Shown here: in pieces, positions 2,999 through 30,617 of the stretch
Layout: each line of letters begins with the position of its first letter
How positions within the stretch are numbered: the stretch's first letter is position 1
The notes under the pieces: model-generated
What the model saw: the letters and a program-made list of their open reading frames with translations, nothing else
Told to the model about the DNA's origin: nothing
Databases searched by the model: none
NCBI GenBank assembly: GCA_045655245.1
Contig: JAZOOX010000014.1
Span: 5,056 to 69,055, forward strand
Direction: 5' to 3'
Source: Clostridia bacterium
GTDB taxonomy: Bacteria > Bacillota > Clostridia > RGIG8785
DNA: 64,000 nucleotides
Position numbers and translations under genes: made by a program

Positions 2999-3027
2999 TT
3001 GACAAATGGTCAGGAAATACATATAAT
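2999..3027 (+). promoter_or_regulatory. sigma-A type promoter of cysK
   Basis: TTGACA (2999-3004), 17-bp spacer, TATAAT (3022-3027): perfect consensus. Confidence 0.8.
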
Positions 3028-12862: not shown

Positions 12863-14056
12863 ATGACAGGCGAAAGTGCAGTTTTAGAATTAACCAACCT
12901 GCCGAAAACGGTGGGAGCACCTACATTAGAACGGATGGTACGCATCCTGGACGCTTTGGGAAATCCCCAGGAAGGTCCCGGGGTTATCCATATTGCGGGG
13001 ACCAACGGGAAAGGCTCGGTTGCCGCTATGATTGCCGAGATGCTTCGTGCCGACGGGTACAAGGTGGGGATGTTTATTTCGCCTTACATTCACTCTTTTT
13101 ACGAACGGATACAGGTGGACGGGAAACCCATTCCTGCCGAGGTTTTGGCGCGGCTGTGGGAACGGGTACGTCCTTTGGCACCGGATGCAGTAGCCTTTGA
13201 AGCGGTGACTGCAATAGGGTTTTTGTACTTTGCCGAGGAAGCCTGCGACTATGTGGTTTTGGAAACAGGGTTGGGGGGGCGGTTTGACGCCACCAACACG
13301 GTCAAAAAGCCGCTGCTGTCGGTACTGACTCATATTGATTTGGATCACACCGAAATTTTGGGGGAAAGGATCGAACAGATCGCCGCTGAAAAGTGCGGTA
13401 TCTTAAGAAAAAACGGTGTGGCGGTTACTACGCCCTGTCAGAACCCCGATGCCTTAAAAGTGATTCAAGAACATTGTGACGCATTGGATGTGGCGTTGCA
13501 GATTGCGCCTTCTGCCGTTGTTTTGCGGGAAGAACGGGGCGTCCTTGAGCTGGAATGGGAAGGATCGGTATATTCCTTGGGGATGACCGCTTATTATCAG
13601 GCGGAAAACGCCGCCACCGCTCTTTGCGCAGGGTCCCTTTTAGGGATTTCTCCCGATGCGAAGGAACAAGGGTTGCGCCTTGCCCGTCAGCCGGGGCGGT
13701 TTGAATGGGTGACACCCGGGTTGGTGTTGGACGGTGCTCACAACCCCAACGGCATTAAAGGTTTGTGTGAGAGTCTGCGCCGTGTGACCCGCCCCCGAGA
13801 GGTCTGCGTGGTGCTGGGGATGCTTCCCGATAAGGAGCGGTTGTCCGCGCTGCCGTTATTGGCGGAAGTGGCGGAGGAGCTGATCGTTGTGCCTGTGCAT
13901 ACTCCGCGAGGGGATGACGGAAGACCGCTTTTTGAAGAGGCGCAACAATATTTTCCAAAGGTTTCTTACTGTGACTACGCCAAAAAGGCGATTTCGATGA
14001 CCGACAAGCCCGTGGTTTGTGTCTGCGGTTCGTTGTATTTATTAGGAGAAGTTTAA
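12863..14056 (+). CDS. folC: folylpolyglutamate synthase / dihydrofolate synthase
   Basis: Mur-ligase fold P-loop IHIAGTNGKGSV; RBS AAAGGAGCGG before ATG 12863; the listed ORF (12686) starts upstream of the promoter. Confidence 0.85.
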   Translation: MTGESAVLELTNLPKTVGAPTLERMVRILDALGNPQEGPGVIHIAGTNGKGSVAAMIAEMLRADGYKVGMFISPYIHSFYERIQVDGKPIPAEVLARLWERVRPLAPDAVAFEAVTAIGFLYFAEEACDYVVLETGLGGRFDATNTVKKPLLSVLTHIDLDHTEILGERIEQIAAEKCGILRKNGVAVTTPCQNPDALKVIQEHCDALDVALQIAPSAVVLREERGVLELEWEGSVYSLGMTAYYQAENAATALCAGSLLGISPDAKEQGLRLARQPGRFEWVTPGLVLDGAHNPNGIKGLCESLRRVTRPREVCVVLGMLPDKERLSALPLLAEVAEELIVVPVHTPRGDDGRPLFEEAQQYFPKVSYCDYAKKAISMTDKPVVCVCGSLYLLGEV

Positions 14057-14124
14057 GCATCGACAACTTTCGATGGATTGTACGGCGGGAAGTTTAGTAC
14101 AATGGTCGAAAGGAGGCGAAGCGG

Positions 14125-14472
14125 ATGCGCGTCAGAATTGAAGTAAAAAAACGTGCGTTACTGGCGACCCTGATGGGGGAGCTGGACCATCACGCGGCGA
14201 CCAAGCTCAGGGAACGGTTTGACCGCGAACTGGCCGACCGCAAAATTAAGACGTTGGTTGTGGATCTGAATCAGGTCGGGTTTATGGACAGTTCGGGAAT
14301 CGGACTTTTGATCGGCCGCTACCGACAGATGAAGTTGTTGGGCGGGGAGATGCGGATTGTGTCTTCCGACAAAGCGGTTTCACGGATGCTTACCGTTTCG
14401 GGGATCAAGAAGCTGGTCAAGGTCTACCGCAATGTAAACGATGCCTTAAAGGAGGGTGCGGCCTGTGAATGA
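14125..14472 (+). CDS. spoIIAA: anti-sigma-F factor antagonist (STAS domain)
   Basis: STAS motif ..DLNQVGFMDSSGIGLLIGRY..; first gene of the spoIIAA-spoIIAB-sigF operon. Confidence 0.9.
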   Translation: MRVRIEVKKRALLATLMGELDHHAATKLRERFDRELADRKIKTLVVDLNQVGFMDSSGIGLLIGRYRQMKLLGGEMRIVSSDKAVSRMLTVSGIKKLVKVYRNVNDALKEGAACE

Positions 14473-14875
14473 AATGAAAGTTTCTTTTTTATCCCGTTCG
14501 GAAAATGAGGCCTTTGCCCGTACGGCTGTTGCTGCCTTTGCGGCGACTGTTGACCCGACGGTAGAACAGTTAAACGAGGTCAAGACTGCGGTTTCCGAGG
14601 CAGTGACCAACGCCATCGTCCACGGCTACGGCAACGACCGCGGCTGGGTGACGGTTGAAACCAAGCTGGACGGACGGAGGTTGATTTTAACGGTAACCGA
14701 CGAGGGGTGTGGCATTGCTGATGTTCCCCGTGCCATGGAACCTCTATATACCAGCAAACCCGAAGAAGAACGCTCGGGCATTGGGTTTACGGTGATGCAA
14801 ACCTTCACCGACCGTCTTGAGGTACAGTCGGCGGTGGGCAAGGGTACCATCGTGACCATGGAAAAGCAGTTATAA
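14465..14875 (+). CDS. spoIIAB: anti-sigma-F factor (serine kinase)
   Basis: HATPase_c motifs (..EAVTNAIVHGY..; ..DEGCGI..); GTG 14465 follows RBS AAGGAGGG and gives the N-terminus MNEMKVSFL, as in Bacillus SpoIIAB. Confidence 0.9.
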   Translation: MNEMKVSFLSRSENEAFARTAVAAFAATVDPTVEQLNEVKTAVSEAVTNAIVHGYGNDRGWVTVETKLDGRRLILTVTDEGCGIADVPRAMEPLYTSKPEEERSGIGFTVMQTFTDRLEVQSAVGKGTIVTMEKQL

Positions 14876-15556
14876 ATGGGGGCGCAGGAGTTGCGCCTGG
14901 CGCTTTTACAAGCGGCACGGTCGGGTGACCGTGAGGCGGAGGAAGCGTTTGTTTCACAAAATCTGGGTCTGGTTCACGGGTTGGTGTCCCGTTTTGCGGG
15001 GGTGCACGACCGCGAGGAACTGTTCCAAGTCGGGTGTATGGGGTTGCTCCGTGCAGTCCGACGGTTTGACTTTACATACGAAGTGGCTTTTTCCACCTAT
15101 GCCGTCCCCGTGATTTTAGGGGAGATTCGGCAGTTTCTGCGAGGCGACGGGACCGTGCATGTCAGTCGTAGTGCGCGGGAACGCGGGGCGCAGGTCGCCC
15201 GCGGGACAGAGCGGCTGACCCGTGAGTTAGGGCGTCCGCCTACCGTCTCTGAACTGGCAGAGGAGTTGGGAATGACCCCTTTTGAGGTGGCGGAAGCCGA
15301 GGCGGGGCGGCAGGTGCTCCCCTTAAGCGATTGGGAGCAAAGCCTGTCAGTGCGGGATGCCGACCCTGCGGAGCGGGTGGATCTTCGTCGTGCCCTTGCA
15401 GCTTTGCCTGAAAAGGAGCGGCAGGTGTTGGTCCTGCGGTTTTGGCGGGATTGTACGCAAGGAGATGTAGGTCAACGACTGGGTGTTTCACAGACACAGG
15501 TTTCCCGCTGGGAGCGGAGCGCAATTAAACGAATGCAAAGGATGTTGGAAGAATGA
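14876..15556 (+). CDS. sigF: sporulation sigma factor SigF
   Basis: Sigma-70 regions 2-4; directly after spoIIAB. Confidence 0.9.
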   Translation: MGAQELRLALLQAARSGDREAEEAFVSQNLGLVHGLVSRFAGVHDREELFQVGCMGLLRAVRRFDFTYEVAFSTYAVPVILGEIRQFLRGDGTVHVSRSARERGAQVARGTERLTRELGRPPTVSELAEELGMTPFEVAEAEAGRQVLPLSDWEQSLSVRDADPAERVDLRRALAALPEKERQVLVLRFWRDCTQGDVGQRLGVSQTQVSRWERSAIKRMQRMLEE

Positions 15557-16518
15557 ACTGGAAAGAAGTTAGCATTGCCACAACTACCGAAGGAATCGAG
15601 GTTGTGACAGGAAATTTACTGATGATTGGCATTAATGGTGCGTCGGTCACCGACAGTCGGGACTTTGAGGCGTTTTTGAACCATACCGAAACTTACTGGG
15701 ATGCGGTAGAGGACGAGCTGATGGTCTTGCGGGACTGCGAGACCCAGGTGACGGTCTACCTTCCCGAGGACGAGCAAGGAGAGGCACAACTCCGTGACTT
15801 GGACGAGATGCTTGCCCATTTAAAGAATGAAGATACCACGGGGGTATACGGACGCTTGGAGCGGACGGTAACTGTCGTGCGGGAAGAGGACTGGGCAAAC
15901 GAGTGGCGAAAGTATTTTAAACCCTTTACCGTAGGAGAACGGTTGCTGGTCAAACCGTCTTGGGAAGAGTTGGACGTTCCCACCGATCGCATTGTATTAG
16001 AAATAGATCCCGCTTCCAGCTTCGGTACGGGGCAGCATCATACCACCCAGTTGTGCATGGAACTGATGGAAGGTTTAGACTGGTCGGATGCCCGTTTGTT
16101 GGATGTGGGTACGGGCAGTGGCATCCTTGCCATTACGGGATTGCTCCTGGGTGCGAAGTCCGCCAGGGGCATTGATATTGACCTTCATGCAGTGGAGACG
16201 TCGATTGAAAATGTCCGTAAGAATGTGGGTGTGAATGCGGCTTATGAAGGGTTTTGCGGCGACATTGTTGCCGACCGTGCTTTGCAGGAACAGGTCTGTG
16301 GACAGTACGAGGTCATCACGGCAAATATTATTGCCGATGTGATCATCGGTCTGACCGACACCTTTATCACAAACTTGAAAAAAGACGGAATTTTGATTGT
16401 GTCAGGCATCATTGACGACCGCGCTGACGAGGTGGAGGACACCTTGAAAACTGCAGGGTTCCGATTGATTGAAAGAACGGCTCAGGGCGGCTGGGTCGCA
16501 ATGGAATTTACCCGATAA
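15553..16518 (+). CDS. prmA: ribosomal protein L11 methyltransferase
   Basis: PrmA fold; SAM motif LDVGTGSGILAI. Confidence 0.9.
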   Translation: MNWKEVSIATTTEGIEVVTGNLLMIGINGASVTDSRDFEAFLNHTETYWDAVEDELMVLRDCETQVTVYLPEDEQGEAQLRDLDEMLAHLKNEDTTGVYGRLERTVTVVREEDWANEWRKYFKPFTVGERLLVKPSWEELDVPTDRIVLEIDPASSFGTGQHHTTQLCMELMEGLDWSDARLLDVGTGSGILAITGLLLGAKSARGIDIDLHAVETSIENVRKNVGVNAAYEGFCGDIVADRALQEQVCGQYEVITANIIADVIIGLTDTFITNLKKDGILIVSGIIDDRADEVEDTLKTAGFRLIERTAQGGWVAMEFTR

Positions 16519-16530
16519 GGGGGACAAAAG

Positions 16531-18270
16531 ATGAAAGAATGGTTAAAGACCCTCCGCGACGGATGGCGGCGGGCAAAACAGTTTTCTTGCAGTCGGCGGA
16601 ACAAGTCGGTAAAGGAGTTGTTGGGAATTTTCCGCGATCCCATCCGTGCATCGGCATTGCCTCTTTTGGGTGGGTTGGTGCTTTTGTTACTGGCGGCGGG
16701 AGCGGATGTTATTGCTCCGAAACTGCAGGAAGCGGTTATCGACAGTGTAGTGGAAAAGAGCGGACTGAACCAAACCCTTTTGTTTGGCGCAGGGGTAGCA
16801 TTGCTCGCCCTGGGGGCGTTGCTTTTTCGAACCCTATCCGATTTCCAACTGCACCGCTCGGAAAACAAACTGATTTTAAAAATACAGACCCAGGTCTTTT
16901 CATATTTATTGGGTTTGCCCAAGACCTACTTTGACGGCAAGGAAAAGGATGGCATCATCAACCGCGTGTCGGCTGACATTTACGGGATGCGGAGCGTTCT
17001 GGCGGTGGTGCTTCACTTCTGCGGACAGATTCCCACCTTGCTGGTCAGCGCAGGGTTCCTGATTGCCAAGCATCCTGTGGTGGCGCTGTGGTCGTTGTTA
17101 CCGCTACCCGTCTTTTTTGGGCTTTCCTATATCATCGGGCGCCGTACCCGTGCCCTTGCCTATTTGGCAGCAGACGAGCGTGCGGGAGTCTACGGCGTTA
17201 TCGCCGAGTCGGTTAAGGGTTCGACCCTGATCAAGACTGACGGAGAGCAGGCGGGACAGGTTAAAAAGTTGGAACGCCGCGGCGAGCAGAATCGTCGGAT
17301 CATGCTGGAGCAACGGGCTTTCGGCAGTCTGATGCGATTTTTGGGCGGGCTTTTCCAAAACGGCAGCAAATTGCTGGTGTTCGGCTTCGGTTTTTATATG
17401 ATGTATCGGGGTGAGCTGACCCTGGGCGGCGTGGTAGCAATGTCCACCTATATCGGGATGGTTTACAGTCCTGCCCAAGCCATTGCCCGTGGTATCCTCA
17501 CCTTGCAGGACGGCTTGACCGCATTAGAACGGGTAGCGGAGTTCTATGAGGTTCAGCCTGAGGATGTACAAAGCGGCCAGACCGCCGAAACGTTACGGGG
17601 GGAACTGACCTTTGACAAGGTTTCCTTTTCTTATGGGCAGGAACCTGTGCTGAAAGAGGTTTCCTTTGCTCTTGCCCCCGGAAAGATGCATTATCTGGTC
17701 GGTGAAAGCGGCGTGGGCAAGAGTACCCTGCTCAGCTTGATTTTATGTCTGTACCGCCCTCATACGGGAAAGATTTTCTTTGACGGTGTTGACCAAAAAG
17801 ATTATGCCATCGAGAGTTTAAGACGGCGGATCGCCTATGTTTCTCAGGAATCCGTTTTCTTTTCGGGGACGGTCGCTGATAATTTGGCGGCACAAACAGG
17901 AGCTGACCGTAAAAGGATTATTACGGCGGCGGAGACAGCAAAGATCCATCAGCGGATTTGCGGGTTGCCCGACGGGTATGATACGGTGCTGGAAAGCGGC
18001 GCACCCCTTTTTTCCCAGGGAGAACGCCAACGATTGAGTCTGGCAAGGGCGCTTTTGCGGGATGCGGATATCTATGTAGTGGACGAACCAACGGCGGCAT
18101 TAGACCCTGTAAATCGTGACGAGATACTGGCGGTATTGGATCGCCTTGCCGAGAACAAGACGGTGCTGGTGGTCACTCACCAGTTAAATATGATCCCTGG
18201 AGGGACGCAGGTTCTTCGCCTAAAAGACGGTGCGCTTTTGGAGGTGTCGGCAGATGAGACGATCCTTTGA
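16531..18270 (+). CDS. ABC exporter, fused permease/ATP-binding protein
   Basis: Six-TM domain plus NBD with Walker A GESGVGKST, signature FSQGERQRL, Walker B IYVVDE; no C39 peptidase domain. Confidence 0.8.
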   Translation: MKEWLKTLRDGWRRAKQFSCSRRNKSVKELLGIFRDPIRASALPLLGGLVLLLLAAGADVIAPKLQEAVIDSVVEKSGLNQTLLFGAGVALLALGALLFRTLSDFQLHRSENKLILKIQTQVFSYLLGLPKTYFDGKEKDGIINRVSADIYGMRSVLAVVLHFCGQIPTLLVSAGFLIAKHPVVALWSLLPLPVFFGLSYIIGRRTRALAYLAADERAGVYGVIAESVKGSTLIKTDGEQAGQVKKLERRGEQNRRIMLEQRAFGSLMRFLGGLFQNGSKLLVFGFGFYMMYRGELTLGGVVAMSTYIGMVYSPAQAIARGILTLQDGLTALERVAEFYEVQPEDVQSGQTAETLRGELTFDKVSFSYGQEPVLKEVSFALAPGKMHYLVGESGVGKSTLLSLILCLYRPHTGKIFFDGVDQKDYAIESLRRRIAYVSQESVFFSGTVADNLAAQTGADRKRIITAAETAKIHQRICGLPDGYDTVLESGAPLFSQGERQRLSLARALLRDADIYVVDEPTAALDPVNRDEILAVLDRLAENKTVLVVTHQLNMIPGGTQVLRLKDGALLEVSADETIL

Positions 18271-18697
18271 CAGCCTTTCGATTTCTGCCGCAAAAGAGAT
18301 CCTGACAGCGGTGTTGGCGACAGGGAACCGGTTTCGGTTCACCGCCCACGGGGTCAGTATGAGTCCGTTCATCCGTGACGGAGACACTGTGGAGTTGGCG
18401 CCCGTTCAAAAGATTCGGCTGGGGGATATCCTTCTGGCAGAAAAGAATGGGCGGTTGTTGCTCCACCGCGCCGTGGCAATCAAAAAGGATACGGTGCTTT
18501 TAAAAGGGGATAATTTGAGTACTCCCGACGGGTGGTTTCGAAAAAAAGAAATTTTTGCAGTTGCCGTTAAGGTGAGTCATCACCAAGTGCACCAAAAATG
18601 GGGACTGGAGCGATTTTCGAAAACAGCGGCAGTGCTTTCTCGGTACAATTTTTTGCGAAAAGCTGCTGTTTTTGGCGCAAAGTTTTTAAAAAAGTAA
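18254..18697 (+). CDS. S24/S26-family serine peptidase-like protein (signal-peptidase/LexA fold)
   Basis: Catalytic-Ser motif GVSMSPFIRDGD and downstream Lys (..KGDNL..); overlaps the ABC gene end by 17 nt (translational coupling); no obvious TM helix. Confidence 0.5.
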   Translation: MRRSFDSLSISAAKEILTAVLATGNRFRFTAHGVSMSPFIRDGDTVELAPVQKIRLGDILLAEKNGRLLLHRAVAIKKDTVLLKGDNLSTPDGWFRKKEIFAVAVKVSHHQVHQKWGLERFSKTAAVLSRYNFLRKAAVFGAKFLKK

Positions 18698-18706
18698 AAA
18701 GAACTA

Positions 18707-18735
18707 TTGACAATCAGAAAAAATGAATGTATAAT
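18707..18735 (+). promoter_or_regulatory. consensus sigma-A promoter for the secreted-protein gene
   Basis: TTGACA (18707-18712), 17-bp spacer, TATAAT (18730-18735): perfect consensus. Confidence 0.8.
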
Positions 18736-18801
18736 GTGATTATCAAAATCCATCGTTGGATGTATTATGTTGTTTGATACAATTCTGGGAGGTAATGTAA
18801 A

Positions 18802-19395
18802 ATGAAAAAGTATCTCGTAATTGCAACTGTATTGGTTGCTCTGGTAGCGTTGTTCAGCATCTCTGCTTCTGCTGCAGATATCGCTTTAGCTGATGTTCAG
18901 TATACTTCCAGTGCTACTGGTGTTACCATTAACCGTGTTGCTATCGGGCTGTCTGGAGCTCCGGTTCCTTCCGGCGACGGTTATTACACTGTTTTGGCAT
19001 ACACCGGTGCAGAAGATCCTTCTGCTGCAACGATTCTGTTTGTAGGTCAGGAAATTACTCCTATTACCAGCTTTAGTGTAAACCCCGCTTCGCTGAATAA
19101 CAGACAGTTGTATGTAAAGTGTGGCGGTAGTGGTGTGGATCAAGCTGGAAACACAAATGCTACTTATGCTTTTTCCCTGGTTGCTTTTGACGAAAATGGA
19201 ATGGCTTTGGATGTAAATAAGTATACCACAGCTGGTACCAAGAAACTGGAAGTTACCGGTGCAGACTCCATCCTTCTGTATGGCGCAGAGATTAGAAATG
19301 AAGCTGACCCGGCATACGTTGGCTTTGAAGTTCCTGGTGGAGATTCCGACGGTACCTATGCTCACCGTGTATACAGACAGTTTGTTGAACTGTAA
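18802..19395 (+). CDS. secreted protein of unknown function (signal peptide, ASA|AD cleavage site)
   Basis: N-terminal MKKYLVIATVLVALVALFSISASA signal peptide; Ser/Thr/Gly-rich beta-type composition; RBS GGGAGG. Confidence 0.6.
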   Translation: MKKYLVIATVLVALVALFSISASAADIALADVQYTSSATGVTINRVAIGLSGAPVPSGDGYYTVLAYTGAEDPSAATILFVGQEITPITSFSVNPASLNNRQLYVKCGGSGVDQAGNTNATYAFSLVAFDENGMALDVNKYTTAGTKKLEVTGADSILLYGAEIRNEADPAYVGFEVPGGDSDGTYAHRVYRQFVEL

Positions 19396-19442
19396 TTTGT
19401 AGGAACTTTTTCAAAAAATATACCATAGAGGAGTGTGTTACC

Positions 19443-20873
19443 GTGTACAATCGATTGGTACGGGTAGTCGCACTGGCTCTCACAATTGTTTTGACGATGT
19501 CCGTTTCGGTTTTTGCTGAGACGGACATTTCTGACAATTACGCCAGTTCTTCTGCCGTTTATGCTGCTGCAAAAGATGTAATTGCCAACGCCAAGGATAA
19601 GGCTGCAACCATTGATATTTACTTAGACCGCGCGTCTACCTACCTTGCATCTAACCGTACCGCTTTGATCAAAGACGGTTTTGTACTGCCTGCCGATGCA
19701 CCTGCTGCTTTGGCTGCTAACCGGAAGGCGGTAGTAGATCTGCTGGCTGCTGACGGAACAGATTACGAGGATTTAATTAAGACCTTGACCGTCCGTGTTC
19801 CTGCAAATTACTCGCTGGATTACGGCACCTTGGTTGTAGATCGTTCTACCATGGAATCCATTCGCGCTGAAGGGTTTTCCCACCTGGTTTTTGAAAATGA
19901 TCTGTTTGCTGTTCGTCTGTCTATGGTAGACTATTTGTCCACCATTCCCGAATCGGTTAAAACAGTTAAGATTTTTGCAGGCGAAACACGCACCGATGTA
20001 CCTCAGTCTGTTTTAGACAAGGCGGGTTCTATGCCTATTTTGGTTTTCCGTGAATACCATGACGGTGTTCAGGTCAACAACAACTATTCCAAAAACGCTG
20101 TTGCCTTCATTGTAAAGAGTTCCATGTACAATGTCGCAGGGCGTTCTCCTTCGGAAAATATGTTCTTTAGGTATGACCTGAAGACGAACAGTGTTCATTT
20201 TGTTGTCAATTACGGTTATTCTGTTGCAACCGACACTGCTTCCTTTGGCGTCGAGGACGGCAACTACTTTATCTTCTTGCCCAAGGAAGCCGAAATGCTG
20301 AAGCCTGTCATCCCTGGCGGTAGCAGTAACAAGTCCGGATACGAAGATGTTTTGGACGAGCATTGGGCTTGTGAGTCCATTCGTAAACTTTCCGGCCGTG
20401 ACGTTATCAGCGGCGTAGGCAATGGGATGTTTGAACCCGAGTCTTTTGTCACTCGGGAACAGTTTGCCAAGCTGTTGGCCGTCGGCTTTGATATGCCCGA
20501 CGCAAGTGATGCGCCTTTCACCGATGTTCCTGCCGATGATTGGGCACATCCCTTCATTTCCCGTGTTTATGCCAAGGGTGTAACCAAGGGAATTGGTGGA
20601 AACCTCTTTGGTTACGGTCAGCGAATCACCCGTCAGGATATGGCGGTTATGATTTACAAGGTCCTGTCTGAAAACGGTGGTCTGGACGATATTAATCGCG
20701 ACAACTTCACCTTTGTTGACGATTCGTCGATTGCCGATTATGCCCGCGATGCCGTTTACGCAATGCGCGCAAAGGGGATTATCAACGGTAACCCTGACGG
20801 TACCTTCTGTCCCAACGATTTTGCCACCCGTGCACAGGCCGCAACAATGCTTTGCTCGGCATTGGGGATTTGA
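19443..20873 (+). CDS. cell-surface protein with C-terminal S-layer-homology (SLH) repeats
   Basis: GTG start after RBS AGAGGAG; signal peptide; three C-terminal SLH-like repeats (..FVTREQFAKLL..; ..ITRQDMAVMIYKVL..; ..FATRAQAATMLCSAL..). Confidence 0.7.
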   Translation: MYNRLVRVVALALTIVLTMSVSVFAETDISDNYASSSAVYAAAKDVIANAKDKAATIDIYLDRASTYLASNRTALIKDGFVLPADAPAALAANRKAVVDLLAADGTDYEDLIKTLTVRVPANYSLDYGTLVVDRSTMESIRAEGFSHLVFENDLFAVRLSMVDYLSTIPESVKTVKIFAGETRTDVPQSVLDKAGSMPILVFREYHDGVQVNNNYSKNAVAFIVKSSMYNVAGRSPSENMFFRYDLKTNSVHFVVNYGYSVATDTASFGVEDGNYFIFLPKEAEMLKPVIPGGSSNKSGYEDVLDEHWACESIRKLSGRDVISGVGNGMFEPESFVTREQFAKLLAVGFDMPDASDAPFTDVPADDWAHPFISRVYAKGVTKGIGGNLFGYGQRITRQDMAVMIYKVLSENGGLDDINRDNFTFVDDSSIADYARDAVYAMRAKGIINGNPDGTFCPNDFATRAQAATMLCSALGI

Positions 20874-20875
20874 GT

Positions 20876-21169
20876 ATGGCTTTAGCAGAATCGGTTGTCT
20901 TCAAAAAACACTCCGAACTGGTCGAGCGTGAGATTGAAGGAGAAATCCTGGTTATCCCGATTATGGCCGGTGTCGGTGATGCGGATGCCAATATGTATTC
21001 TTTTAATAACCAGGGCGCGGCAATATGGGGTCTTATCGATGGCGAGACCTCGTTGGGTGAAATTGCAGACCGTCTTTGTGAAGAGTACGAGGTAACCCGC
21101 GACCGTGCGTTACAGGAAACAGTTGTGTTTCTGGAGGAACTTGCGGAACGGAACTTGATTTTACAGTAG
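20876..21169 (+). CDS. PqqD-family protein (RiPP recognition element-like)
   Basis: 97 aa; ..EGEILVIPIMAGVGDADANMYSFNNQGAAIWGLIDGETSLGEIADRLCEEYEV..ETVVFLEELAERNLI matches the PqqD/RRE fold pattern; ATG 20876 three nt after the SLH gene stop. Confidence 0.75.
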   Translation: MALAESVVFKKHSELVEREIEGEILVIPIMAGVGDADANMYSFNNQGAAIWGLIDGETSLGEIADRLCEEYEVTRDRALQETVVFLEELAERNLILQ

Positions 21170-21209
21170 CGCAGTCCGAAAAGACGGAGATTTGAAATGA
21201 GGGATTTGA

Positions 21210-22322
21210 ATGGAGCAACGTCGTACACCGACTTCATTTGAATTTTTAAAAAAGAAAGCGGCGGATAAAACGCCGCTTTCTTTAAGTGTAGAGTTAACGG
21301 CGCGTTGCAACAACGATTGCCGACATTGTTATATCAATGTCCCCGCAGGGGATATCGCTGCCAAGGAAAAGGAACTCCCCCTTACCGAATGGGAAAGGAT
21401 TGCCGATATGGCACGAGATGCAGGAGTGCTCTGGTGCCTGATTTCAGGCGGGGAACCCATGCTTCGCAGTGATTTTTTTGACCTTTACATGATGTTTAAA
21501 CGTAAGGGGTTTTTGATCACTCTCTTTACCAATGCAACCTTAATGACCGAAGAGGCAGTGGCGTTTTTCAAGCGGTATCCGCCCTATAAAATTGAGGTTT
21601 CGGTCTACGGCGTTACCGACGATACTTATTTTGCGGTCACAGGAAAACGTGGGTACTGTCAGCGGATGAAAGAGGGCATTGAACGGTTGCGTGCTGCGGG
21701 GCTATACACCTGCTTGAAAACCCCTTTGATTCGTTCGAATCAGCAGGAGGCAGAAGCAATTTACCAATACTGTCGGGAACGGTCTTCTGAACCATTTCGT
21801 TTTGATACCATTCTACACAACCGGGTGGACTTTGACGCCGACCGCAATCGCTCGATTGCTGAAGAACGGTTAACACATCAACAGGTACTGGACTTGGAAG
21901 GCTTACGTCCTGAACGGTTGGAAATTTTAAAAAATGCGTGTCTGAACTCGCAACGTCAACTGCGTATCGACCCGGTCACGGGAGAACAACCGTTGTTTCG
22001 TTGTCGTGCGGGGGCGGAAAGCATCACGGTTGATCCTTATGGCAGAATGCGCCTTTGTGCTATGTTATCGGGTCCTGAATTCTTATATGATTTGAAGAAG
22101 GGCACCATTGATGAGGCCATGGGACCATTTCGGGATAGGATTTTGACAATGCCCAACAAAAACCCCGCCTTTGAACGGTGCCGCGGCTGTCGGGCGTTGC
22201 CCCTTTGCAACTGGTGTCCCGGCCGTGCCCTTTTGGAGATGGGAACAGTGGATGCCTTTATGCCAGAACTTTGCCGATTGGCAGAGAAACGCTTTGATGC
22301 TTTGACCAAGGAGGATGTGTAA
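21210..22322 (+). CDS. radical SAM/SPASM-domain peptide-modifying enzyme
   Basis: CNNDCRHC (C-x3-C-x2-C) rSAM cluster motif; C-terminal SPASM motif CRGCRALPLCNWC (C-x2-C-x5-C-x2-C). Confidence 0.85.
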   Translation: MEQRRTPTSFEFLKKKAADKTPLSLSVELTARCNNDCRHCYINVPAGDIAAKEKELPLTEWERIADMARDAGVLWCLISGGEPMLRSDFFDLYMMFKRKGFLITLFTNATLMTEEAVAFFKRYPPYKIEVSVYGVTDDTYFAVTGKRGYCQRMKEGIERLRAAGLYTCLKTPLIRSNQQEAEAIYQYCRERSSEPFRFDTILHNRVDFDADRNRSIAEERLTHQQVLDLEGLRPERLEILKNACLNSQRQLRIDPVTGEQPLFRCRAGAESITVDPYGRMRLCAMLSGPEFLYDLKKGTIDEAMGPFRDRILTMPNKNPAFERCRGCRALPLCNWCPGRALLEMGTVDAFMPELCRLAEKRFDALTKEDV

Positions 22323-23197
22323 TGCGGGACGAAAAATGTTACGGGATGTATGCCGCGGCGGGAATTACCTTTCGGCTGTTTTCCGAACGCCCTGTTACAA
22401 CTTCCACTTTTGCACCCAAAATGGACAAGTTTGCCGTTGCCGAGACGGGCGCCGAGGTGGTGGACGTCCATCACCATTTTACCATGCCCCAACGGCGGTT
22501 CGATACATCACCTGTGTACAACACCTCCCCCTGGACCATTTACCAGGAAGGGGAGACCTGGCACTATGTTTGGACCAATAAGCTGACCCGGACGGTGGAA
22601 TACTACGCCGTTTTTACCGAGGAATACCATCAGGTACACATCTACCACTACAACACCGATCTTTGGGATCGGGGGAATCACGTGGGACTGTTGATGCGCA
22701 CCAATGATCAGGTGCTGTTTTTGCCCCTGCTTTGGCAGCGGGGTGGATTTGTGCTTCATTCCTCGGCGGTGGTTCAGGGGGATCGTGCCATTGTTTTGGT
22801 GGGGCATTCGGGCGCGGGGAAGAGTACTGCTACCAATCACTTTGGAAAAGATGCAGTGGTCATCAGCGAAGACCGCAATATTATTCTACCCGAGAATGAC
22901 GCGTTTTACGTTTACGGTTCCTGGATTCATTATAACAACGATCGTATCACCAATGACCGTAAGCGAGTAGATGCGTTGTACTTCATCAAAAAGGCCAACG
23001 AAACCCGTTTAGAACCTTTAAAACCCTTGACCGCAATACACGAAACGCTGTCCCATGTCGCTCGTGGATACGCCAATGCCAAGGGCTGGAATGCCACCGT
23101 TGATGCAGTGGAAAAATTTATTCAAAAAAATTTATGTTTTTACTTGCATTTTGAAAAAGATGGTGGTATAATGAATTTACTAAATCGTCAAAATTGA
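22322..23197 (+). CDS. HPr-kinase C-terminal-domain-like P-loop protein (putative peptide kinase)
   Basis: Walker A GHSGAGKST as in HprK; ATGA start/stop overlap with the rSAM gene. Confidence 0.65.
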   Translation: MRDEKCYGMYAAAGITFRLFSERPVTTSTFAPKMDKFAVAETGAEVVDVHHHFTMPQRRFDTSPVYNTSPWTIYQEGETWHYVWTNKLTRTVEYYAVFTEEYHQVHIYHYNTDLWDRGNHVGLLMRTNDQVLFLPLLWQRGGFVLHSSAVVQGDRAIVLVGHSGAGKSTATNHFGKDAVVISEDRNIILPENDAFYVYGSWIHYNNDRITNDRKRVDALYFIKKANETRLEPLKPLTAIHETLSHVARGYANAKGWNATVDAVEKFIQKNLCFYLHFEKDGGIMNLLNRQN

Positions 23198-23233
23198 TTT
23201 AATAATGTAAAGTTTCATTGGGAGGTATATGAG

Positions 23234-23395
23234 AATGAAAAAGGTATGGGAAACTCCTGAAGTTGTAGCAGTAGTACATGGTAGCCCTGAAGAAGCTGTT
23301 TTGATGACTTGCTATGATGATTTGACTTGCGAATTCGATGCAGCCGAAAGCACTGGGGCTGAATTTCTGACTGTTGATCTGGCTGCTATCAGCTG
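23234..23395 (+). CDS. putative RiPP precursor peptide (53 aa; below ORF-track cutoff)
   Basis: RBS GGGAGG (23219-23224) 9 nt before ATG 23234; MKKVWETPEVVAVVHGSPEEAVLMTCYDDLTCEFDAAESTGAEFLTVDLAAIS; W-x-x-P leader motif, acidic two-Cys core, C-terminal Ser; terminator follows. Confidence 0.5.
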
Positions 23396-23430
23396 ATTTT
23401 TACATTTTTCACAACCAAAAATGACAATTA

Positions 23431-23470
23431 CCAAGTTGTTGGGATACCGACAGCTTGGTTTGTTGTGTCT
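23431..23470 (+). terminator. terminator after the precursor-peptide gene
   Basis: CCAAGTTG..(loop)..CAGCTTGG hairpin followed by a T-rich tract. Confidence 0.6.
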
Positions 23471-23535
23471 TTGAACAAACGAGCTGTATCGGAAATACGA
23501 AAGGCGGGGAAAGGGGACTTTCTCTGCTTTTTTTC

Positions 23536-23564
23536 TTTACATTAATAGGAGACTGTGGTACAAT
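23536..23564 (+). promoter_or_regulatory. sigma-A type promoter of metY
   Basis: TTTACA (23536-23541), 17-bp spacer, TACAAT (23559-23564). Confidence 0.6.
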
Positions 23565-23619
23565 AAAGCCAATACCAAAAGGGGGTTGCCCCTGCTTATA
23601 CCAAACGGAGGTGTCTCGA

Positions 23620-24885
23620 ATGAGAATTGAAACCAAGTGTATTCAAGAAGGATATGAGCCGAAAAACGGAGAACCGAGAATGCTCCCCATTTTTCAGAGC
23701 ACGACCTATAAATACGACAGCGCCGAGCATTTAGGGAAACTTTTTGACTTAGAGGCTCCGGGGCATATGTATACCCGCATCTCCAATCCTACGGTGGATG
23801 CGGTTGAAAAGAAGATTGCCGCTTTGGAAGGCGGTATCGGTGCTCTTTGTACCTCGGGCGGTCAGGCAGCCAGCCTGATTTCGGTCATGAACATCTGTCG
23901 TGCAGGAGACCATATCATCAGTTCCTCTGCCATTTACGGCGGTACCTTGAATCTTTTTGACGTGACCTTGCGGAAGTTTGGCATCGAGACTACTTTTATT
24001 CCCCCGGATGCAGACGAGGAGACTTTAGAAGCTGCCTTCCGTGAAAACACCAAGCTGGTCTTTGCTGAGAGTCTGTCCAACCCTTCTCTGGCGGTAGTGG
24101 ACCTGGAACTCTTTTCCCGCATTGCCCATGCTCACGGGGTTCCGCTGATTATTGACAACACCTTCCCCACGGCGGTGAACTGCCGTCCCTTCGAGCACGG
24201 TGCTGACATTGTGATTCATTCTACTTCTAAGTACATGGATGGCCATGGCGTTTCGTTGGGCGGTGTCATTATTGATTCGGGTAAATTCCAGTGGTCTCCC
24301 GAAAAGTTCCCTGACCTGGTTGAGCCGGACGAGTCCTACCACGGCGTTAGCTACGTTCGTGATTTTGGTGCGGCGGCGTACATTACCAAGGCCCGTGTCC
24401 AGCTAATGCGTGACCTGGCATCGTCCCCCTCGCCCTTTAACGCTTTTTTGCTGAATTTGGGGCTTGAGACCCTACCTTTACGGATGAAGCAGCATTGTGA
24501 AAATGCGATGAAGGTTGCCGCATTTTTGGATGCCGAGGACAAGGTGGCATGGGTTTGCCATCCCTCTTTAAAATCCCATCCCCAGTATGATTTGGCGCAA
24601 AAATACTTGAAGGACAGTGGTTGCGGCGTCATCTCCTTTGGTGTGAAAGGCGGACGGGAAGCTGCAATGAAACTGATGAACAGCCTACAACTTGCCAAGA
24701 TTGTAGTCCACGTTGCAGATGCCCGTACTTGTGTACTCCATCCCGCATCTACCACCCATCGTCAGCTGACCGACCAACAGTTAGTCGAGTGTGGTGTGAA
24801 ACCCGAAATGATCCGTCTGTCGGTGGGTATTGAGCATGCTGACGACATCATTGATGACCTGAAGCAGGCGTTGGCAAGATTATGA
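23620..24885 (+). CDS. metY: O-acetylhomoserine sulfhydrylase (PLP-dependent Cys/Met metabolism family)
   Basis: Family signature (..PIFQSTTYKYD..; ..YTRISNPT..; ..HSTSKYMDGHG..); RBS GGAGGTG before ATG 23620; the listed ORF start (23455) lies in the upstream terminator/promoter region. Confidence 0.85.
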   Translation: MRIETKCIQEGYEPKNGEPRMLPIFQSTTYKYDSAEHLGKLFDLEAPGHMYTRISNPTVDAVEKKIAALEGGIGALCTSGGQAASLISVMNICRAGDHIISSSAIYGGTLNLFDVTLRKFGIETTFIPPDADEETLEAAFRENTKLVFAESLSNPSLAVVDLELFSRIAHAHGVPLIIDNTFPTAVNCRPFEHGADIVIHSTSKYMDGHGVSLGGVIIDSGKFQWSPEKFPDLVEPDESYHGVSYVRDFGAAAYITKARVQLMRDLASSPSPFNAFLLNLGLETLPLRMKQHCENAMKVAAFLDAEDKVAWVCHPSLKSHPQYDLAQKYLKDSGCGVISFGVKGGREAAMKLMNSLQLAKIVVHVADARTCVLHPASTTHRQLTDQQLVECGVKPEMIRLSVGIEHADDIIDDLKQALARL

Positions 24886-26012
24886 GCCGTTACGAGTTAG
24901 TGATTCCCACCCTTTTCGGTATTGAGGCGGTTGTCGCCCGTGAAGTGCGGGAATTGGGTTACGAGACCACCGAAGTTTCGGACGGTCGGGTCTGTTTTTT
25001 AGGGGACGACGAGGCGGTGGTGCGCGCCAACCTGGGCATTCGTGCAGGTGAGCGGGTTTTGATCAAGGTGGGGGAGTTTGAAGCCCGTACTTTTACAGAA
25101 CTGTTTGACGGCTGCCGTGCATTGGACTGGCCACGGTTTATCCCCAAGCACGGGGCGTTCCCCGTGAAGGGGCACTCGGTGCGCTCGACTCTGTTCAGCG
25201 TTCCTGACTGCCAAAAGATTATTAAAAAGAGTGTTGCCGATTGTCTGGGTAGCCGGTACTCCCTGGGGCGGATGCCCGAGGATGGAGAGCTGTACCAGAT
25301 TCAGTTTTCTATTTTAAAGGACAAGGTAACCTTGATGATTGATACCAGCGGTGAGGGTTTGCATAAGCGGGGTTACCGCAGGGATTCGTCCAACCGCGCC
25401 CCCATCCGTGAGACCCTGGCGAGTGCCATGGTGCAGTTGTCCTTTTGGAATGAGCATCGGATCTTGCTGGACCCCTTTTGCGGGTCGGGGACCATCCCCA
25501 TTGAGGCGGCAATGATCGCCAAGAACATGGCGCCCGGGTTGCGGCGCAACTTTGCGGCAGAGTCTTTTAGCTGGCTGGACCCCACCCTTTGGAAAGAAAT
25601 CCGTGAAGAGTTTACAGATGCGGTGGTGGAAGCCAAAGATACCATGATTTTTGCTTCGGACATCAACCCTGACTGTGTTCGTCTGACCATGAAAAATGCA
25701 TCGGCGGCGCGGGTAGACCCCCTGGTTCGTGCAGGGGTGCGGGACGTTCGTGATCTAAAGTTCCGCGACCCGCGGGGCATCATCATTACCAACCCGCCTT
25801 ATGGTGAGCGGATGGGGGATGCCAAGGAGGCGAAAGAACTTTCTCGGGTGATGGGGCGTGTGTTCCCCACATTCCCCGATTGGTCTTATTACATTATTAC
25901 GCCTGACGAGGACTTTGAAAAAGACTTTGGAAAAAAAGCGTCCAAAAAACGGAAACTTTACAATGGTATGATTCGGTGTCAGTACTACCAGTACTTTGCT
26001 CCGAAAAAATGA
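24882..26012 (+). CDS. THUMP-domain class I SAM-dependent RNA methyltransferase
   Basis: N-terminal THUMP-like region plus methyltransferase motifs (..LLDPFCGSGTIPIEAA..; ..IITNPPYGERMG..). Confidence 0.8.
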   Translation: MSRYELVIPTLFGIEAVVAREVRELGYETTEVSDGRVCFLGDDEAVVRANLGIRAGERVLIKVGEFEARTFTELFDGCRALDWPRFIPKHGAFPVKGHSVRSTLFSVPDCQKIIKKSVADCLGSRYSLGRMPEDGELYQIQFSILKDKVTLMIDTSGEGLHKRGYRRDSSNRAPIRETLASAMVQLSFWNEHRILLDPFCGSGTIPIEAAMIAKNMAPGLRRNFAAESFSWLDPTLWKEIREEFTDAVVEAKDTMIFASDINPDCVRLTMKNASAARVDPLVRAGVRDVRDLKFRDPRGIIITNPPYGERMGDAKEAKELSRVMGRVFPTFPDWSYYIITPDEDFEKDFGKKASKKRKLYNGMIRCQYYQYFAPKK

Positions 26013-26065
26013 GAAAACGCGAGAGAAACTTCGAAATCACGAGGTTTCTCTTATTTTTTTGAAAA

Positions 26066-26130
26066 TTTGACTTTGTTTGACTTTTGCGATTTTGTGACAG
26101 AATGGTATACTAAAGTCAAAGAAAGTCAAA
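26066..26130 (+). promoter_or_regulatory. ctsR promoter with two CtsR operator repeats
   Basis: TTTGACTTTGTTTGACT (26066-26082, inverted orientation) and AGTCAAAGAAAGTCAAA (26114-26130) match the CtsR heptad direct-repeat consensus; extended -10 TGgTATACT at 26103-26111. Confidence 0.8.
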
Positions 26131-26149
26131 AACAAAAAGAGGTGGTCTG

Positions 26150-26599
26150 ATGAAAGTCAGCGATATCATTGAAAGGTTTTTAAAGGAACTGTTAGAGGAG
26201 AATGGCGGGACGGTAGAGATTTGCCGTAATGATCTGGCGACGCGATTTCACTGTGTGCCCTCCCAGATCAACTATGTGATTGCCACGCGGTTTAAGAATG
26301 AGAACGGCTATGCTGTGGACAGCCGTCGGGGCGGCGGCGGGTCGGTACGGATTCGGCGGGTACAGCCTGCAGGCGGGAATGTGGTGATGCATCTGGTCAA
26401 CCATATGGGGGATCGGGTGAGTTATCAAGAGATGGCTTATTTTCTGCAGGATCTGCTGTCTGCAGGAATTTTAAGTGAACGGGAGTGCAAACTGTTATTG
26501 GGAGCACTGTCCGACCGCGTACTCGGGGCCAACATCGAGCATCGGGAGCGTGTTCGTGCCGTTGCGTTAAAGAACGCCCTGGTGCATTTAATCAGTTGA
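26150..26599 (+). CDS. ctsR: class III stress-gene transcriptional repressor CtsR
   Basis: N-terminal winged-HTH and conserved Gly-rich loop (..RRGGGGSVRIRR..). Confidence 0.9.
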   Translation: MKVSDIIERFLKELLEENGGTVEICRNDLATRFHCVPSQINYVIATRFKNENGYAVDSRRGGGGSVRIRRVQPAGGNVVMHLVNHMGDRVSYQEMAYFLQDLLSAGILSERECKLLLGALSDRVLGANIEHRERVRAVALKNALVHLIS

Positions 26600-28090: not shown

Positions 28091-30553
28091 ATGAAAAACG
28101 AACTGCGATTTACCCGACTTGCCGAGCGGGTTTTGCGCCATGCACAGGAAATCGGTGAGAGTTCGGGCTACGGATATGTGGGCAGTGAAATGATTTTGGC
28201 AGGGATGTTGCGAGAAGCCGAGGGTGTTGCCTGTCAGGTGCTTTCCGACCATGGCGTGACCGAAGAAAAGGTCACCGAAAAGGCGTTGGAGATTTTGGGT
28301 GAACCCAGCGGTTCGGGGACCCCTGCCGCACTGACTCCCCGCACCAAGCGGGTGATTGAGCTGTCCGCCGTGGAAGCGGCACGGCAGGGACACGGATACA
28401 TCGGTACCGAGCATCTGCTGATGGCGATTTTGCGGGAAGGTGCCAACATCGCTGTCCGTGTATTGGGCGAGTTGGGGGTTTCTGCCCGTGATTTGTACCA
28501 AGAGGTATTAAAGCGCATCAACGGCGAGGACTCTGTGACCGAAGAAACCGTCCCGCCTAAGGCGAAGGCGGGGTCTGCCAAGGGGAGAAAGACGCCCACC
28601 CTGGACCAGTTTGGTCGGGACCTGACTGAACTGGCGCGGGCGGGGAAGTTTGACCCGATTATTGGTCGGGGCGAAGAAATCGAACGGGTGACTCAGATTC
28701 TAAGCCGCCGCACCAAGAACAACCCCTGTCTGATCGGGGAGCCGGGGGTGGGCAAGACTGCTGTGGCAGAAGGTTTGGCGCAGGAGATTGCCGCGGGAAA
28801 CGTACCCGAGCTGCTTCGCAACAAGCGGGTGATTGCCATTGACCTGTCTTCTATGGTGGCAGGCGCCAAGTACCGCGGGGAGTTTGAAGAACGTTTAAAG
28901 AAAGCATTAGAAGAAATTGTTACTGCGGGGGATGTGATCCTCTTTATCGACGAGGTGCATACCATTGTGGGTGCAGGTGCCGCTGAGGGTGCCATCGACG
29001 CTGCCAACATCCTAAAACCGTTGTTGGCGCGGGGGGAACTCCAGCTGATTGGTGCCACTACTCTGAATGAATATCGGAAGTATATTGAAAAGGATGCGGC
29101 GCTGGAGCGGCGGTTCCAGCCGATTACAGTAGGTGAGCCGACAGTGGAAGAAACGGTTGCCATCCTAAAGGGGATCCGTGATAAGTACGAAGCCCATCAC
29201 GCCGTAGCCATTACCGATGGCGCGTTAGAAGCGGCGGCAAAGCTTTCGGCACGGTATATCACCGATCGATTCCTCCCTGATAAGGCAATTGATCTGGTGG
29301 ATGAGGCGGCATCGCGAATGAAACTGCAGACGGTGACCGCTCCTGCAGAGCTACGGGAGATGGAAGAGCGTTTGTCCCAAATCGGTCGTGAGAAAGAGGA
29401 GGCTGTCCGCGGACAAGATTTTGAGAAAGCGGCTACCCTTCGTGACGAGGAGAATCGGGTTGCCGAGGAACTGAAGTCGTTGAAGTCGGTTTGGGAACAG
29501 GAGACCCAAAACGCCGCCCGAAAGGTTACCGAGGAGGAGATTGCCGAAGTGGTTGCCAAGTGGACGGGGATTCCCACCCGCCGTTTGCAGGAGGAAGAAG
29601 GGGAGCGGTTGCTTCGCTTAGAGGAGACTTTGCACAACCGTGTCATCGGTCAGGATGATGCCGTTTCGGCGGTTGCCCGTGCCATTCGCCGTGGCAGAGT
29701 CGGGTTAAAAGACCCCAAGCGACCCATTGGTTCCTTTATCTTTTTGGGGCCTACGGGTGTGGGTAAGACCGAGCTTTGCAAAGCCCTTGCCGAAGCGCTG
29801 TTCGGGGACGAGGACGCCATGATTCGGGTGGATATGTCTGAGTATATGGAAAAGCACTCGGTCTCCCGTTTGGTCGGTTCGCCTCCCGGATATGTAGGTT
29901 ATGATGACGGCGGCCAGCTCACTGAAAAGGTCCGCCGCAAGCGCTATTCCGTTGTTTTGTTTGACGAGATTGAAAAGGCGCATCCTGACGTGTTCAATAT
30001 CCTGCTTCAGGTACTGGAGGACGGGATACTGACCGACAGTCAGGGACGAAAGGTGGACTTTCGTGACACGGTGGTGATTATGACTTCCAACGTAGGTGCA
30101 CGACGGATTACCGAGACTCAGCGCCGTCTGGGTTTTGCTGCCGAAGAACAGACTGCGGGCAGTGAGGAAATCCGTGAGCAGGTAATGGGCGAACTGAAAC
30201 AGGCCTTCCGTCCCGAGTTTTTAAACCGTATTGATGACGTCATTGTTTTTGCCCAGTTGCAAAAGCCCCAGATACGCATCATTGCCGAGAAGATGCTGGA
30301 GCGGGTGACTGCACGGATGGTGGACCATGGCATTGCCCTTCGCGTTACCGACGAAGCGTTGGACCATTTGGCGGAAGCGGGCTTTGACCCCGTTTACGGA
30401 GCAAGACCCTTGCGCCGTGCCATCCAGTCCCAGGTGGAGGATTTACTGGCGGAAGGAATGCTGTCGGGGAAGGTTTTGACCGATGCGGATGCGGTAATCG
30501 GCGTACAGGACGGGAAGATTGCCCTGGTTTCGGAAGAAAATTTGGGAAAATGA
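28091..30553 (+). CDS. clpC: ATP-dependent Clp protease ATP-binding subunit ClpC
   Basis: Clp N-repeats, two AAA+ modules (GEPGVGKT and GPTGVGKT Walker A), UVR linker; fourth gene of the ctsR operon. Confidence 0.95.
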
Positions 30554-30617
30554 TTGACAAACCCAAGAAGTTTAGTTATAATAAATACGCATGTTTATAG
30601 GAAGAGGTACGTTGCGC

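Follow-up and report, generated by a model that had tools for sequence, protein, structure and literature searches.

The locus described here lies in a stretch of 64,000 nucleotides (nt) from a Clostridia bacterium (contig JAZOOX010000014.1, positions 5,056 to 69,055), which we refer to in its full length as the window. Eight consecutive genes are located on its forward strand: an ATP-binding cassette (ABC) exporter, a soluble peptidase, a secreted protein of 197 amino acids (aa), a protein anchored by S-layer homology (SLH) repeats, a PqqD-family protein, a radical S-adenosylmethionine (rSAM) enzyme with a SPASM domain, a P-loop protein related to HprK and ScmC, and a precursor peptide (Table 1). 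In the reading that we consider probable, the exporter, the peptidase and the last four of these genes form one set for a peptide that is ribosomally synthesised and then modified post-translationally (RiPP), with an unrelated surface module nested inside it; with similar confidence, we regard the six RiPP genes as belonging, in reduced and rearranged form, to a family of cassettes that is widespread and uncharacterised. The exporter and the peptidase are assigned to this set because relatives of the peptidase occur beside the same genes in more than ten phyla, and because the two intervening surface genes are confined to a lineage of gut Clostridia.

Table 1. Features at and around the exporter-peptidase locus of the window (positions are those of the window)
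Feature	Position	Strand	Remarks
folC, spoIIAA, spoIIAB, sigF, prmA	upstream of exporter	+	in that order
ABC half-transporter exporter, 579 aa	16531-18270	+	start 12 nt past prmA stop
Soluble clan-SF peptidase, 147 aa, Sec11/SipW type	18254-18697	+	proposed leader peptidase
Sigma-70-type promoter TTGACA-17-TATAAT, perfect	18707-18735	+	12/12 match, consensus scan
Ribosome-binding site GGGAGG of 197-aa gene	18787-18792	+	by sequence inspection; invariant in six Clostridial loci
Secreted orphan protein, 197 aa	18802-19395	+	lineage-specific
SLH-anchored cell-wall protein, 476 aa	19443-20873	+	Pfam SLH
PqqD-family peptide-binding chaperone (RiPP recognition element, RRE)	20876-21169	+	Pfam PqqD 1.8e-16
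rSAM/SPASM peptide maturase	21210-22322	+	Pfam Radical_SAM 5.9e-21
ScmC/HprK-related P-loop protein, putative peptide kinase	22322-23197	+	NCBIfam below cut-off; homologues PF27840
Precursor peptide, 53 aa	23235-23396	+	family HMM
Terminator-like hairpin, 13 pairs, after precursor gene	23430-23459	+	consensus scan; probable operon end
Promoter-like site for metY	23536-23564	+	consensus scan
metY, rlmL, ctsR, mcsA, mcsB, clpC	downstream of precursor ORF	+	in that order

The exporter consists of the Pfam domains ABC_membrane (residues 48-312) and ABC_tran (residues 374-522), and the lack of a C39 domain, noted in the first-pass annotation of this sequence, is borne out by Pfam, with no Peptidase_C39 match and the first domain beginning only at residue 48; in NCBIfam it comes closest to MsbA, HlyB and the NHLP-bacteriocin exporters, without reaching the cut-off of any of them. 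The peptidase gene overlaps the exporter stop codon (18268-18270) by 17 nt, its ATG at 18254 being preceded by GGAGG at 18240-18244, in agreement with the translational coupling that had been proposed for the two genes. The assignment of the peptidase to the S24/S26-like enzymes also stands (Pfam Peptidase_S24, 1.2e-7), with its length corrected from 148 to 147 aa, as does its description as soluble: its Kyte-Doolittle mean over 19 residues peaks at 1.05, which leaves no membrane segment, and there is no signal peptide, so that the enzyme is presumably cytoplasmic.

The serine motif GVSMSP is found at residues 33-38, where S35 is conserved in all 62 sequences of a family alignment that spans many phyla. 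In the same alignment, H71 is conserved in 61 sequences, R72 in 60, D86 in 59 and D92 in 50, and Gly85 is essentially invariant; the later lysine that the first-pass annotation had taken for the catalytic base (K84) is not conserved, the position being held by K in 21, Q in 20 and R in 17 sequences. The motifs GxSMxP, HR and KGD…D align with GSMEP, HRV and KGDN of human SEC11C, the best match among solved structures when the search is made with a profile of 11 homologues. From these residues, the peptidase is predicted to be a Ser/His enzyme, like Sec11 and SipW, and not a Ser/Lys enzyme. Its only NCBIfam match is TIGR02228 (sigpep_I_arch; 1.3e-6), at 28.4 bits against a cut-off of 51.85, a value that the homologue in locus L038 approaches with 51.5 bits; the signature of the subfamily is GxSMxPFIRDGD.

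The AlphaFold model of the peptidase (pLDDT 89) has the clan-SF fold of LexA and the signal peptidases, with one N-terminal helix alone ahead of the catalytic core, and its Foldseek matches are LexA, SpsB, SipA and SEC11A (TM about 0.5, probability 1.0). With LexA among the best fold matches, and with a PHROG match to a CI-like repressor (2.4e-4), the protein might be thought a LexA-like self-cleaving regulator or another protease that does not act on leaders, but we give this reading very little credence: there is no DNA-binding domain where the single helix precedes the core, the predicted base is the histidine and not the lysine of LexA, and the gene neighbourhood is consistently biosynthetic.

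Exact look-ups returned no record identical in sequence to the peptidase or the rSAM enzyme of the window, and their genomic context has therefore been taken from homologues. A scan of one genome per species with the peptidase alignment recovered 58 loci, of which 57 lie outside Clostridia, and the six-frame open reading frames (ORFs) of these loci were searched with the proteins of the window. The loci belong to Archaea (Methanoregulaceae and Methanospirillum) and to Acidobacteriota, Desulfobacterota, Chloroflexota, Omnitrophota, WOR-3, Nitrospirota, Chlorobiaceae, NC10 and Coprothermobacterota, among others. Of the 57 non-Clostridial loci, 51 have homologues of PqqD, rSAM or ScmC at no more than 6 kb from the peptidase gene; the gene immediately upstream is PqqD in 33 and the gene immediately downstream is rSAM in 33, and the strict order PqqD, peptidase, rSAM is seen in 26. 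Where the peptidase gene is well flanked, i.e. with 6 kb or more of sequence to either side (23 loci), there is an adjacent rSAM in 19 loci, at least two rSAMs in 17, ScmC in 16 and an ABC exporter in 15. The single rSAM enzyme of the window matches the rSAM that follows the peptidase in other loci with E of about 1e-84 to 1e-97. The peptidase family is almost confined to cassettes of PqqD, rSAM/SPASM and ScmC-like genes, in Archaea and in more than ten bacterial phyla.

One locus of a Muribaculaceae genome (L066, 9953-12008) holds a peptidase with degenerate motifs (HY for HR and GAS for GDN), directly followed by an ABC exporter; the two stand without RiPP genes and may be a remnant that has lost its activity or a pair put to another use; as a counterexample it is uninformative, since the catalytic motifs are degenerate.

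The modification genes of the window have distant relatives in curated collections. The best NCBIfam match of the rSAM enzyme is ScmE (2.3e-21, far under the cut-off), and those of the P-loop protein are HprK_rel_B (4.4e-6) and ScmC (4.8e-5), both under the cut-off, while all homologues of the P-loop protein carry the Pfam family PF27840 (ScmC). The precursor peptide, MKKVWETPEVVAVVHGSPEEAVLMTCYDDLTCEFD…AAIS, is conserved in relatives and has weak matches to small ORFs in other phyla; a hidden Markov model (HMM) built from it and these weak matches finds about 45 precursors in the peptidase-anchored loci, and within the window its sole match is the precursor gene itself (1.9e-20). The family is characterised by the leader KKxWxxPxLIVLxRGxPEExVLxxCK, by variable cysteine-rich cores and by an almost invariant C-terminal serine, the peptides ending in …TS, …GS or …NS in loci L014-L068 and in …AIS in the window. 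No NCBIfam model recognises these peptides, and the likeness of the xWxxPxL leader to lasso leaders is marginal (NCBIfam E about 0.1). A precursor, a PqqD-type RRE and an rSAM/SPASM enzyme are thus found side by side and kept across taxa, as is expected of a RiPP cluster.

In lasso-peptide clusters, HprK-like kinases phosphorylate a conserved C-terminal serine of the precursor, and a nucleotidyltransferase homologue modifies this serine further (PMC9266682). Because the cassettes described here offer the trio of kinase, nucleotidyltransferase and C-terminal serine that is seen in lasso peptides of the paeninodin and pseudomycoidin types, the same tailoring is likely in them; by this analogy, the combination of an HprK/ScmC-like protein with NTP_transf_5 and a C-terminal serine suggests C-terminal (poly)phosphorylation. 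The NTP_transf_5 nucleotidyltransferase occurs in 20 cassette loci and a methyltransferase in nine, and neither is present in the cassette of the window. More distant cassettes of ScmC, PqqD and rSAM (L005-L009) have a precursor of 40-42 aa (MKKPYEKPAVIYKERIEARASSCG…GCSAPFVS) and lack both peptidase and exporter; a large secreted Peptidase_C25/PKD protein comes next in their place.

Both the cross-phylum neighbourhood and the homologous precursor family support the first of the two interpretations offered in the first-pass annotation, namely that the exporter and the peptidase serve the adjacent PqqD/rSAM cassette. In the pathway that we propose, PqqD would bind the conserved leader (KKxWxxPxL…PEExVL), the rSAM/SPASM enzyme would cross-link the cysteine-containing core, and the HprK-like protein would modify the conserved C-terminal serine. 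The soluble Ser-His peptidase would then cut off the leader in the cytoplasm; the leader would probably be presented by PqqD, on the model of the split lasso proteins B1 (RRE) and B2 (protease), since the PqqD and peptidase genes are direct neighbours in most phyla. Finally, the C39-less exporter, coupled translationally to the peptidase, would secrete the product. Leader removal by the peptidase and secretion by the exporter are the most likely functions, as judged from the gene neighbourhood and the analogy with lasso B1/B2. In the window, the peptidase gene has come to lie beside the exporter gene, which it overlaps, an arrangement that suggests an equivalent, in two polypeptides, of a peptidase-containing ABC transporter.

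Several observations weigh against this pathway. The gene order of the window departs from the common order PqqD, peptidase, rSAM, with a distance of 2.2 kb between peptidase and PqqD. The role of the peptidase family in leader removal is one that we infer by analogy, and its cleavage site is not predictable. The weakest step of the model is the link between exporter and cassette, which is one of adjacency and not of orthology: few of the exporters linked to cassettes resemble the window exporter in the transmembrane domain, and orthology with them, considered as a candidate relationship, is weak. The exporter and the peptidase may, furthermore, be transcribed with sigF and prmA, apart from the modification genes. 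Lastly, the Clostridial relatives that share the arrangement are close kin (MetY 93-95% identical, PrmA 83-93%), so that their shared synteny proves little by itself.

In another reading, the exporter would be a general ABC efflux pump linked to the cassette by chance, with the peptidase alone belonging to the RiPP genes: its transmembrane domain is weakly similar to those of cassette-linked exporters elsewhere, and its gene follows prmA so closely that it may belong to the sigF-prmA transcript. We nevertheless find an efflux pump improbable, as the 17-nt overlap with the peptidase gene is present in the relatives as well as in the window, and, of the 23 well-flanked loci of other phyla, 15 have an ABC exporter no more than 7 kb away from the peptidase homologue.

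The two genes that separate the peptidase from PqqD encode surface proteins. The first is preceded by the textbook promoter that had been pointed out before, which the consensus scan recovers with a match at all 12 positions; the exact TTGACA-17-TATAAT pattern occurs three times in the window, against none expected from shuffled sequences, and both hexamers, the ribosome-binding site and parts of the 5' untranslated region are invariant in six Clostridial loci. The two further perfect copies, also on the forward strand, are located at 2999-3027 and at 30554-30582, the latter beginning directly past the clpC stop at 30553. The 197-aa protein is secreted, as had been proposed, by a classical Sec-type signal peptide (residues 1-24, MKKYLVIATVLVALVALFSISASA/AD, ending ASA/A, with the slash at the cleavage site). 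Its mature part is predicted to be a beta-sandwich, whose model gives generic beta-sandwich matches only. The assignment to an HMM family that the first-pass annotation had called for, with camelysin/TasA among the candidates, gave no Pfam, NCBIfam or PHROG family and no match to TasA/camelysin (Peptidase_M73), whether by family or by fold. Only seven homologues exist among 1.84 billion representative proteins, and a metagenome scan for the family gave no match.

The signal peptide of the 197-aa protein (18802-18873) is 92-96% identical among relatives and the mature part 40-50%, and even a homologue of 36% identity (P0035) has nearly the same signal peptide. Synonymous changes are present in the codons of the signal peptide, which indicates that it is the amino-acid sequence that is constrained. 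As a rule, signal peptides change more quickly in evolution than the mature parts of proteins; some specific constraint therefore acts on this one, whose conservation is an odd feature of the locus.

The SLH-anchored protein agrees with its earlier description: it has three C-terminal SLH repeats (Pfam 5.9e-33, in three stretches), and an N-terminal hydrophobic segment with a hydropathy of 2.26 forms its signal peptide. Its N-terminal domain, about 275 aa long, can be placed in no known family and has no sequence match in the Protein Data Bank (PDB). On comparison, the two surface proteins were rejected as paralogues of each other. The SLH and PqqD genes nearly abut, as had been stated, although the gap between the stop (TGA, 20871-20873) and the ATG at 20876 is 2 nt and not 3; in all Clostridial loci this spacing is 2-17 nt. 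Homologues of the 197-aa and SLH proteins were found solely within this clade of gut Clostridia. Taken together, the pair bears the marks of abundant, fast-evolving, lineage-specific cell-surface proteins that have been nested in the operon.

The second interpretation in the first-pass annotation likened the locus to SipW and TasA, with the peptidase acting as a dedicated signal peptidase for an abundant surface or matrix protein; its substrate would be the 197-aa protein and perhaps the SLH protein too. The Ser-His motifs of the SipW/Sec11 subtype, the position of the 197-aa gene directly downstream of the peptidase and behind a consensus promoter, and the conserved signal peptide would all suit such an arrangement. 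However, the peptidase has neither a membrane segment nor a signal peptide, so that its active site would not be on the side of the membrane where it is needed; homologues of the 197-aa or SLH proteins are found by the ORF search in none of the 57 loci of other phyla, against 51 with RiPP genes; and the substrate would be an orphan beta-sandwich that matches neither TasA nor camelysin, whether in family or in fold. The SipW/TasA interpretation is therefore not supported, and we judge it highly unlikely.

A different possibility is that, in this lineage, the two surface proteins take an active part in the RiPP system, serving for example in self-immunity, as a surface receptor or carrier for the peptide, in its display, or as a further substrate. 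They are situated between peptidase and PqqD in every Clostridial relative seen, the short distance from the SLH stop to the PqqD start makes co-transcription likely, and surface and cassette genes alike diverge far faster than the housekeeping flanks. On the other hand, they are missing from the cassettes of all other phyla, the relatives that share them are such close kin that the synteny may be mere inheritance, and no domain hints at peptide binding or immunity; we hold this possibility to be doubtful, and prefer to see in the surface pair a module unrelated to the RiPP genes around it.

Close homologues of the peptidase are few, and all of them come from metagenome-assembled genomes (MAGs) of gut and rumen Clostridia and from metagenome assemblies, with the same gene order and flanks. 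Wherever the contig of a Clostridial relative is long enough, the genes follow the order ABC exporter, peptidase, 197-aa protein, SLH protein, PqqD, rSAM, ScmC, precursor. In comparison with three of them (L001, L010 and L069), all eight genes diverge much faster than the housekeeping flanks: identities are 48-50% for the peptidase, 58-60% for ScmC and 55-62% for the precursor, whereas MetY is 93-95% and RlmL about 90% identical. Such values point to selection that is relaxed or diversifying across the entire block from 16531 to 23396. That the nearest relatives are MAGs labelled "Clostridia bacterium", and that spoIIAA, spoIIAB and sigF lie upstream, is consistent with the Clostridial origin that had been assumed.

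The spacing of the genes also bears on their expression. In the stretch 14125-18697 (spoIIAA, spoIIAB, sigF, prmA, exporter, peptidase), consecutive genes from sigF onward either overlap, as sigF and prmA do by 4 nt, or are separated by gaps of at most 12 nt, and the consensus scan of the window finds no promoter-like site before the exporter gene; the exporter and the peptidase may for this reason share the expression of the sporulation sigma-F operon. The location of prmA beside sigF is unusual. At the other end, the gaps between genes are tight and the scan finds no terminator-like hairpin before 23430, which, together with the SLH-PqqD spacing of 2-17 nt, suggests that transcription from the promoter of the 197-aa gene probably reads through into PqqD, rSAM, ScmC and the precursor gene as well. 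Between the precursor gene and metY, a spacer of 220 nt (23397-23620) contains two long hairpins, that of Table 1 and a second one at 23499-23532. A SAM riboswitch or a T-box might be expected ahead of a gene of the methionine pathway; Rfam detects no RNA family within 14000-26500, including neither of these before metY.

It is evenly balanced, in our judgement, whether the evidence carries the fuller claim, i.e. that the peptidase stands for a new class of leader peptidases for RiPPs, being a Ser-His enzyme of the Sec11/SipW type that is cytoplasmic, has no anchor and works with PqqD, in an undescribed family of rSAM RiPPs with a probably phosphorylated C-terminal serine, which in gut Clostridia has been wired behind the promoter of a surface-protein pair. 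Known RiPP leader proteases are cysteine proteases (C39, lasso B2), subtilisin-like proteases, S9 proteases and metalloproteases. In the papers that could be searched and in curated models, no signal-peptidase-type Ser-His enzyme was found as a RiPP leader protease, and a review of RiPP leader proteases makes no mention of S24, S26 or signal peptidases. The literature search found no paper on a cassette of rSAM, PqqD and an S24/S26 peptidase, with most subscription journals outside its coverage, so that earlier work is possible. The remark in the first-pass annotation that this is unannotated biology is a fair one, given that there is no curated NCBIfam model for the peptidase subfamily or the precursors.

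If the fuller claim is true, the peptidase would be a portable tool for leader cleavage, and the signature GxSMxPFIRDGD, together with the leader motif of the precursors, would give a handle on a widespread, uncharacterised family of rSAM peptides. The analysis also bears on genome annotation: the exporter and the peptidase are to be assigned to the biosynthetic cluster, and the pair of surface genes is not to be read as TasA-like. The finding is solid and of use in RiPP genome mining, and moderately surprising to a specialist, with no concept changed.

Among known systems, SynChlorMet (ScmC-ScmD-ScmE-ScmF) and GeoRSP share with the window a PqqD protein, at least one rSAM/SPASM enzyme and an HprK/ScmC-like protein, and supply its best NCBIfam matches. 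Membership of these systems was considered and rejected on the scores, which are 76.1 against a cut-off of 400 for ScmE, 22.8 against 125 for ScmC and 22 against 100 for ScmD; a Chlorobiaceae cassette locus is likewise far under the cut-offs. Unlike them, the family of the window includes the peptidase, in many cases an ABC exporter, and precursors that can be recognised as a family.

The Sec11, SipW and archaeal S26B signal peptidases have the fold of the peptidase and its Ser, His-Arg and GDN…D motifs at the same spacing; they have a membrane anchor, which is lacking here, and the partners of the peptidase are RiPP enzymes and not matrix proteins. In peptidase-containing ABC transporters (PCATs, with C39), leader cleavage is tied to ABC export within the transporter, whereas here the tie is at the level of the genes, through the 17-nt overlap, the protease being a separate polypeptide of unrelated fold and catalytic type and the exporter having no C39 domain.

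Ranthipeptide and sactipeptide clusters (PapB, SCIFF, subtilosin) resemble the cassette in having an rSAM/SPASM maturase for a cysteine-containing precursor, with an RRE and an exporter, and the PapB model is matched along its whole length by the peptidase-adjacent rSAM of locus L038 (2.5e-15); the scores are, however, well under the cut-offs, the RRE is here a discrete PqqD protein, and the leader belongs to another family.

With the lasso clusters that have B1, B2 and an exporter, including the paeninodin type with its HPr-kinase homologue, the cassette shares a PqqD-family leader binder beside a cytoplasmic protease that is, or in the cassette would be, dedicated to the leader, an ABC exporter without C39, an HprK-like kinase with a C-terminal serine in the precursor (PMC9266682), and the NTP_transf_5 gene that recurs in loci related to the cassette of the window. 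The leader protease of the lasso clusters is a transglutaminase-like cysteine protease, in contrast to the Ser-His enzyme of clan SF found here, and the place of the lasso cyclase is taken by rSAM/SPASM enzymes, with cysteine-rich cores in the precursors. RiPP clusters that combine a protease with an ABC exporter are of a known kind, while the type of the protease in this role, its pairing with PqqD and the family of precursors and cassettes are undescribed in the literature found and in the curated models.

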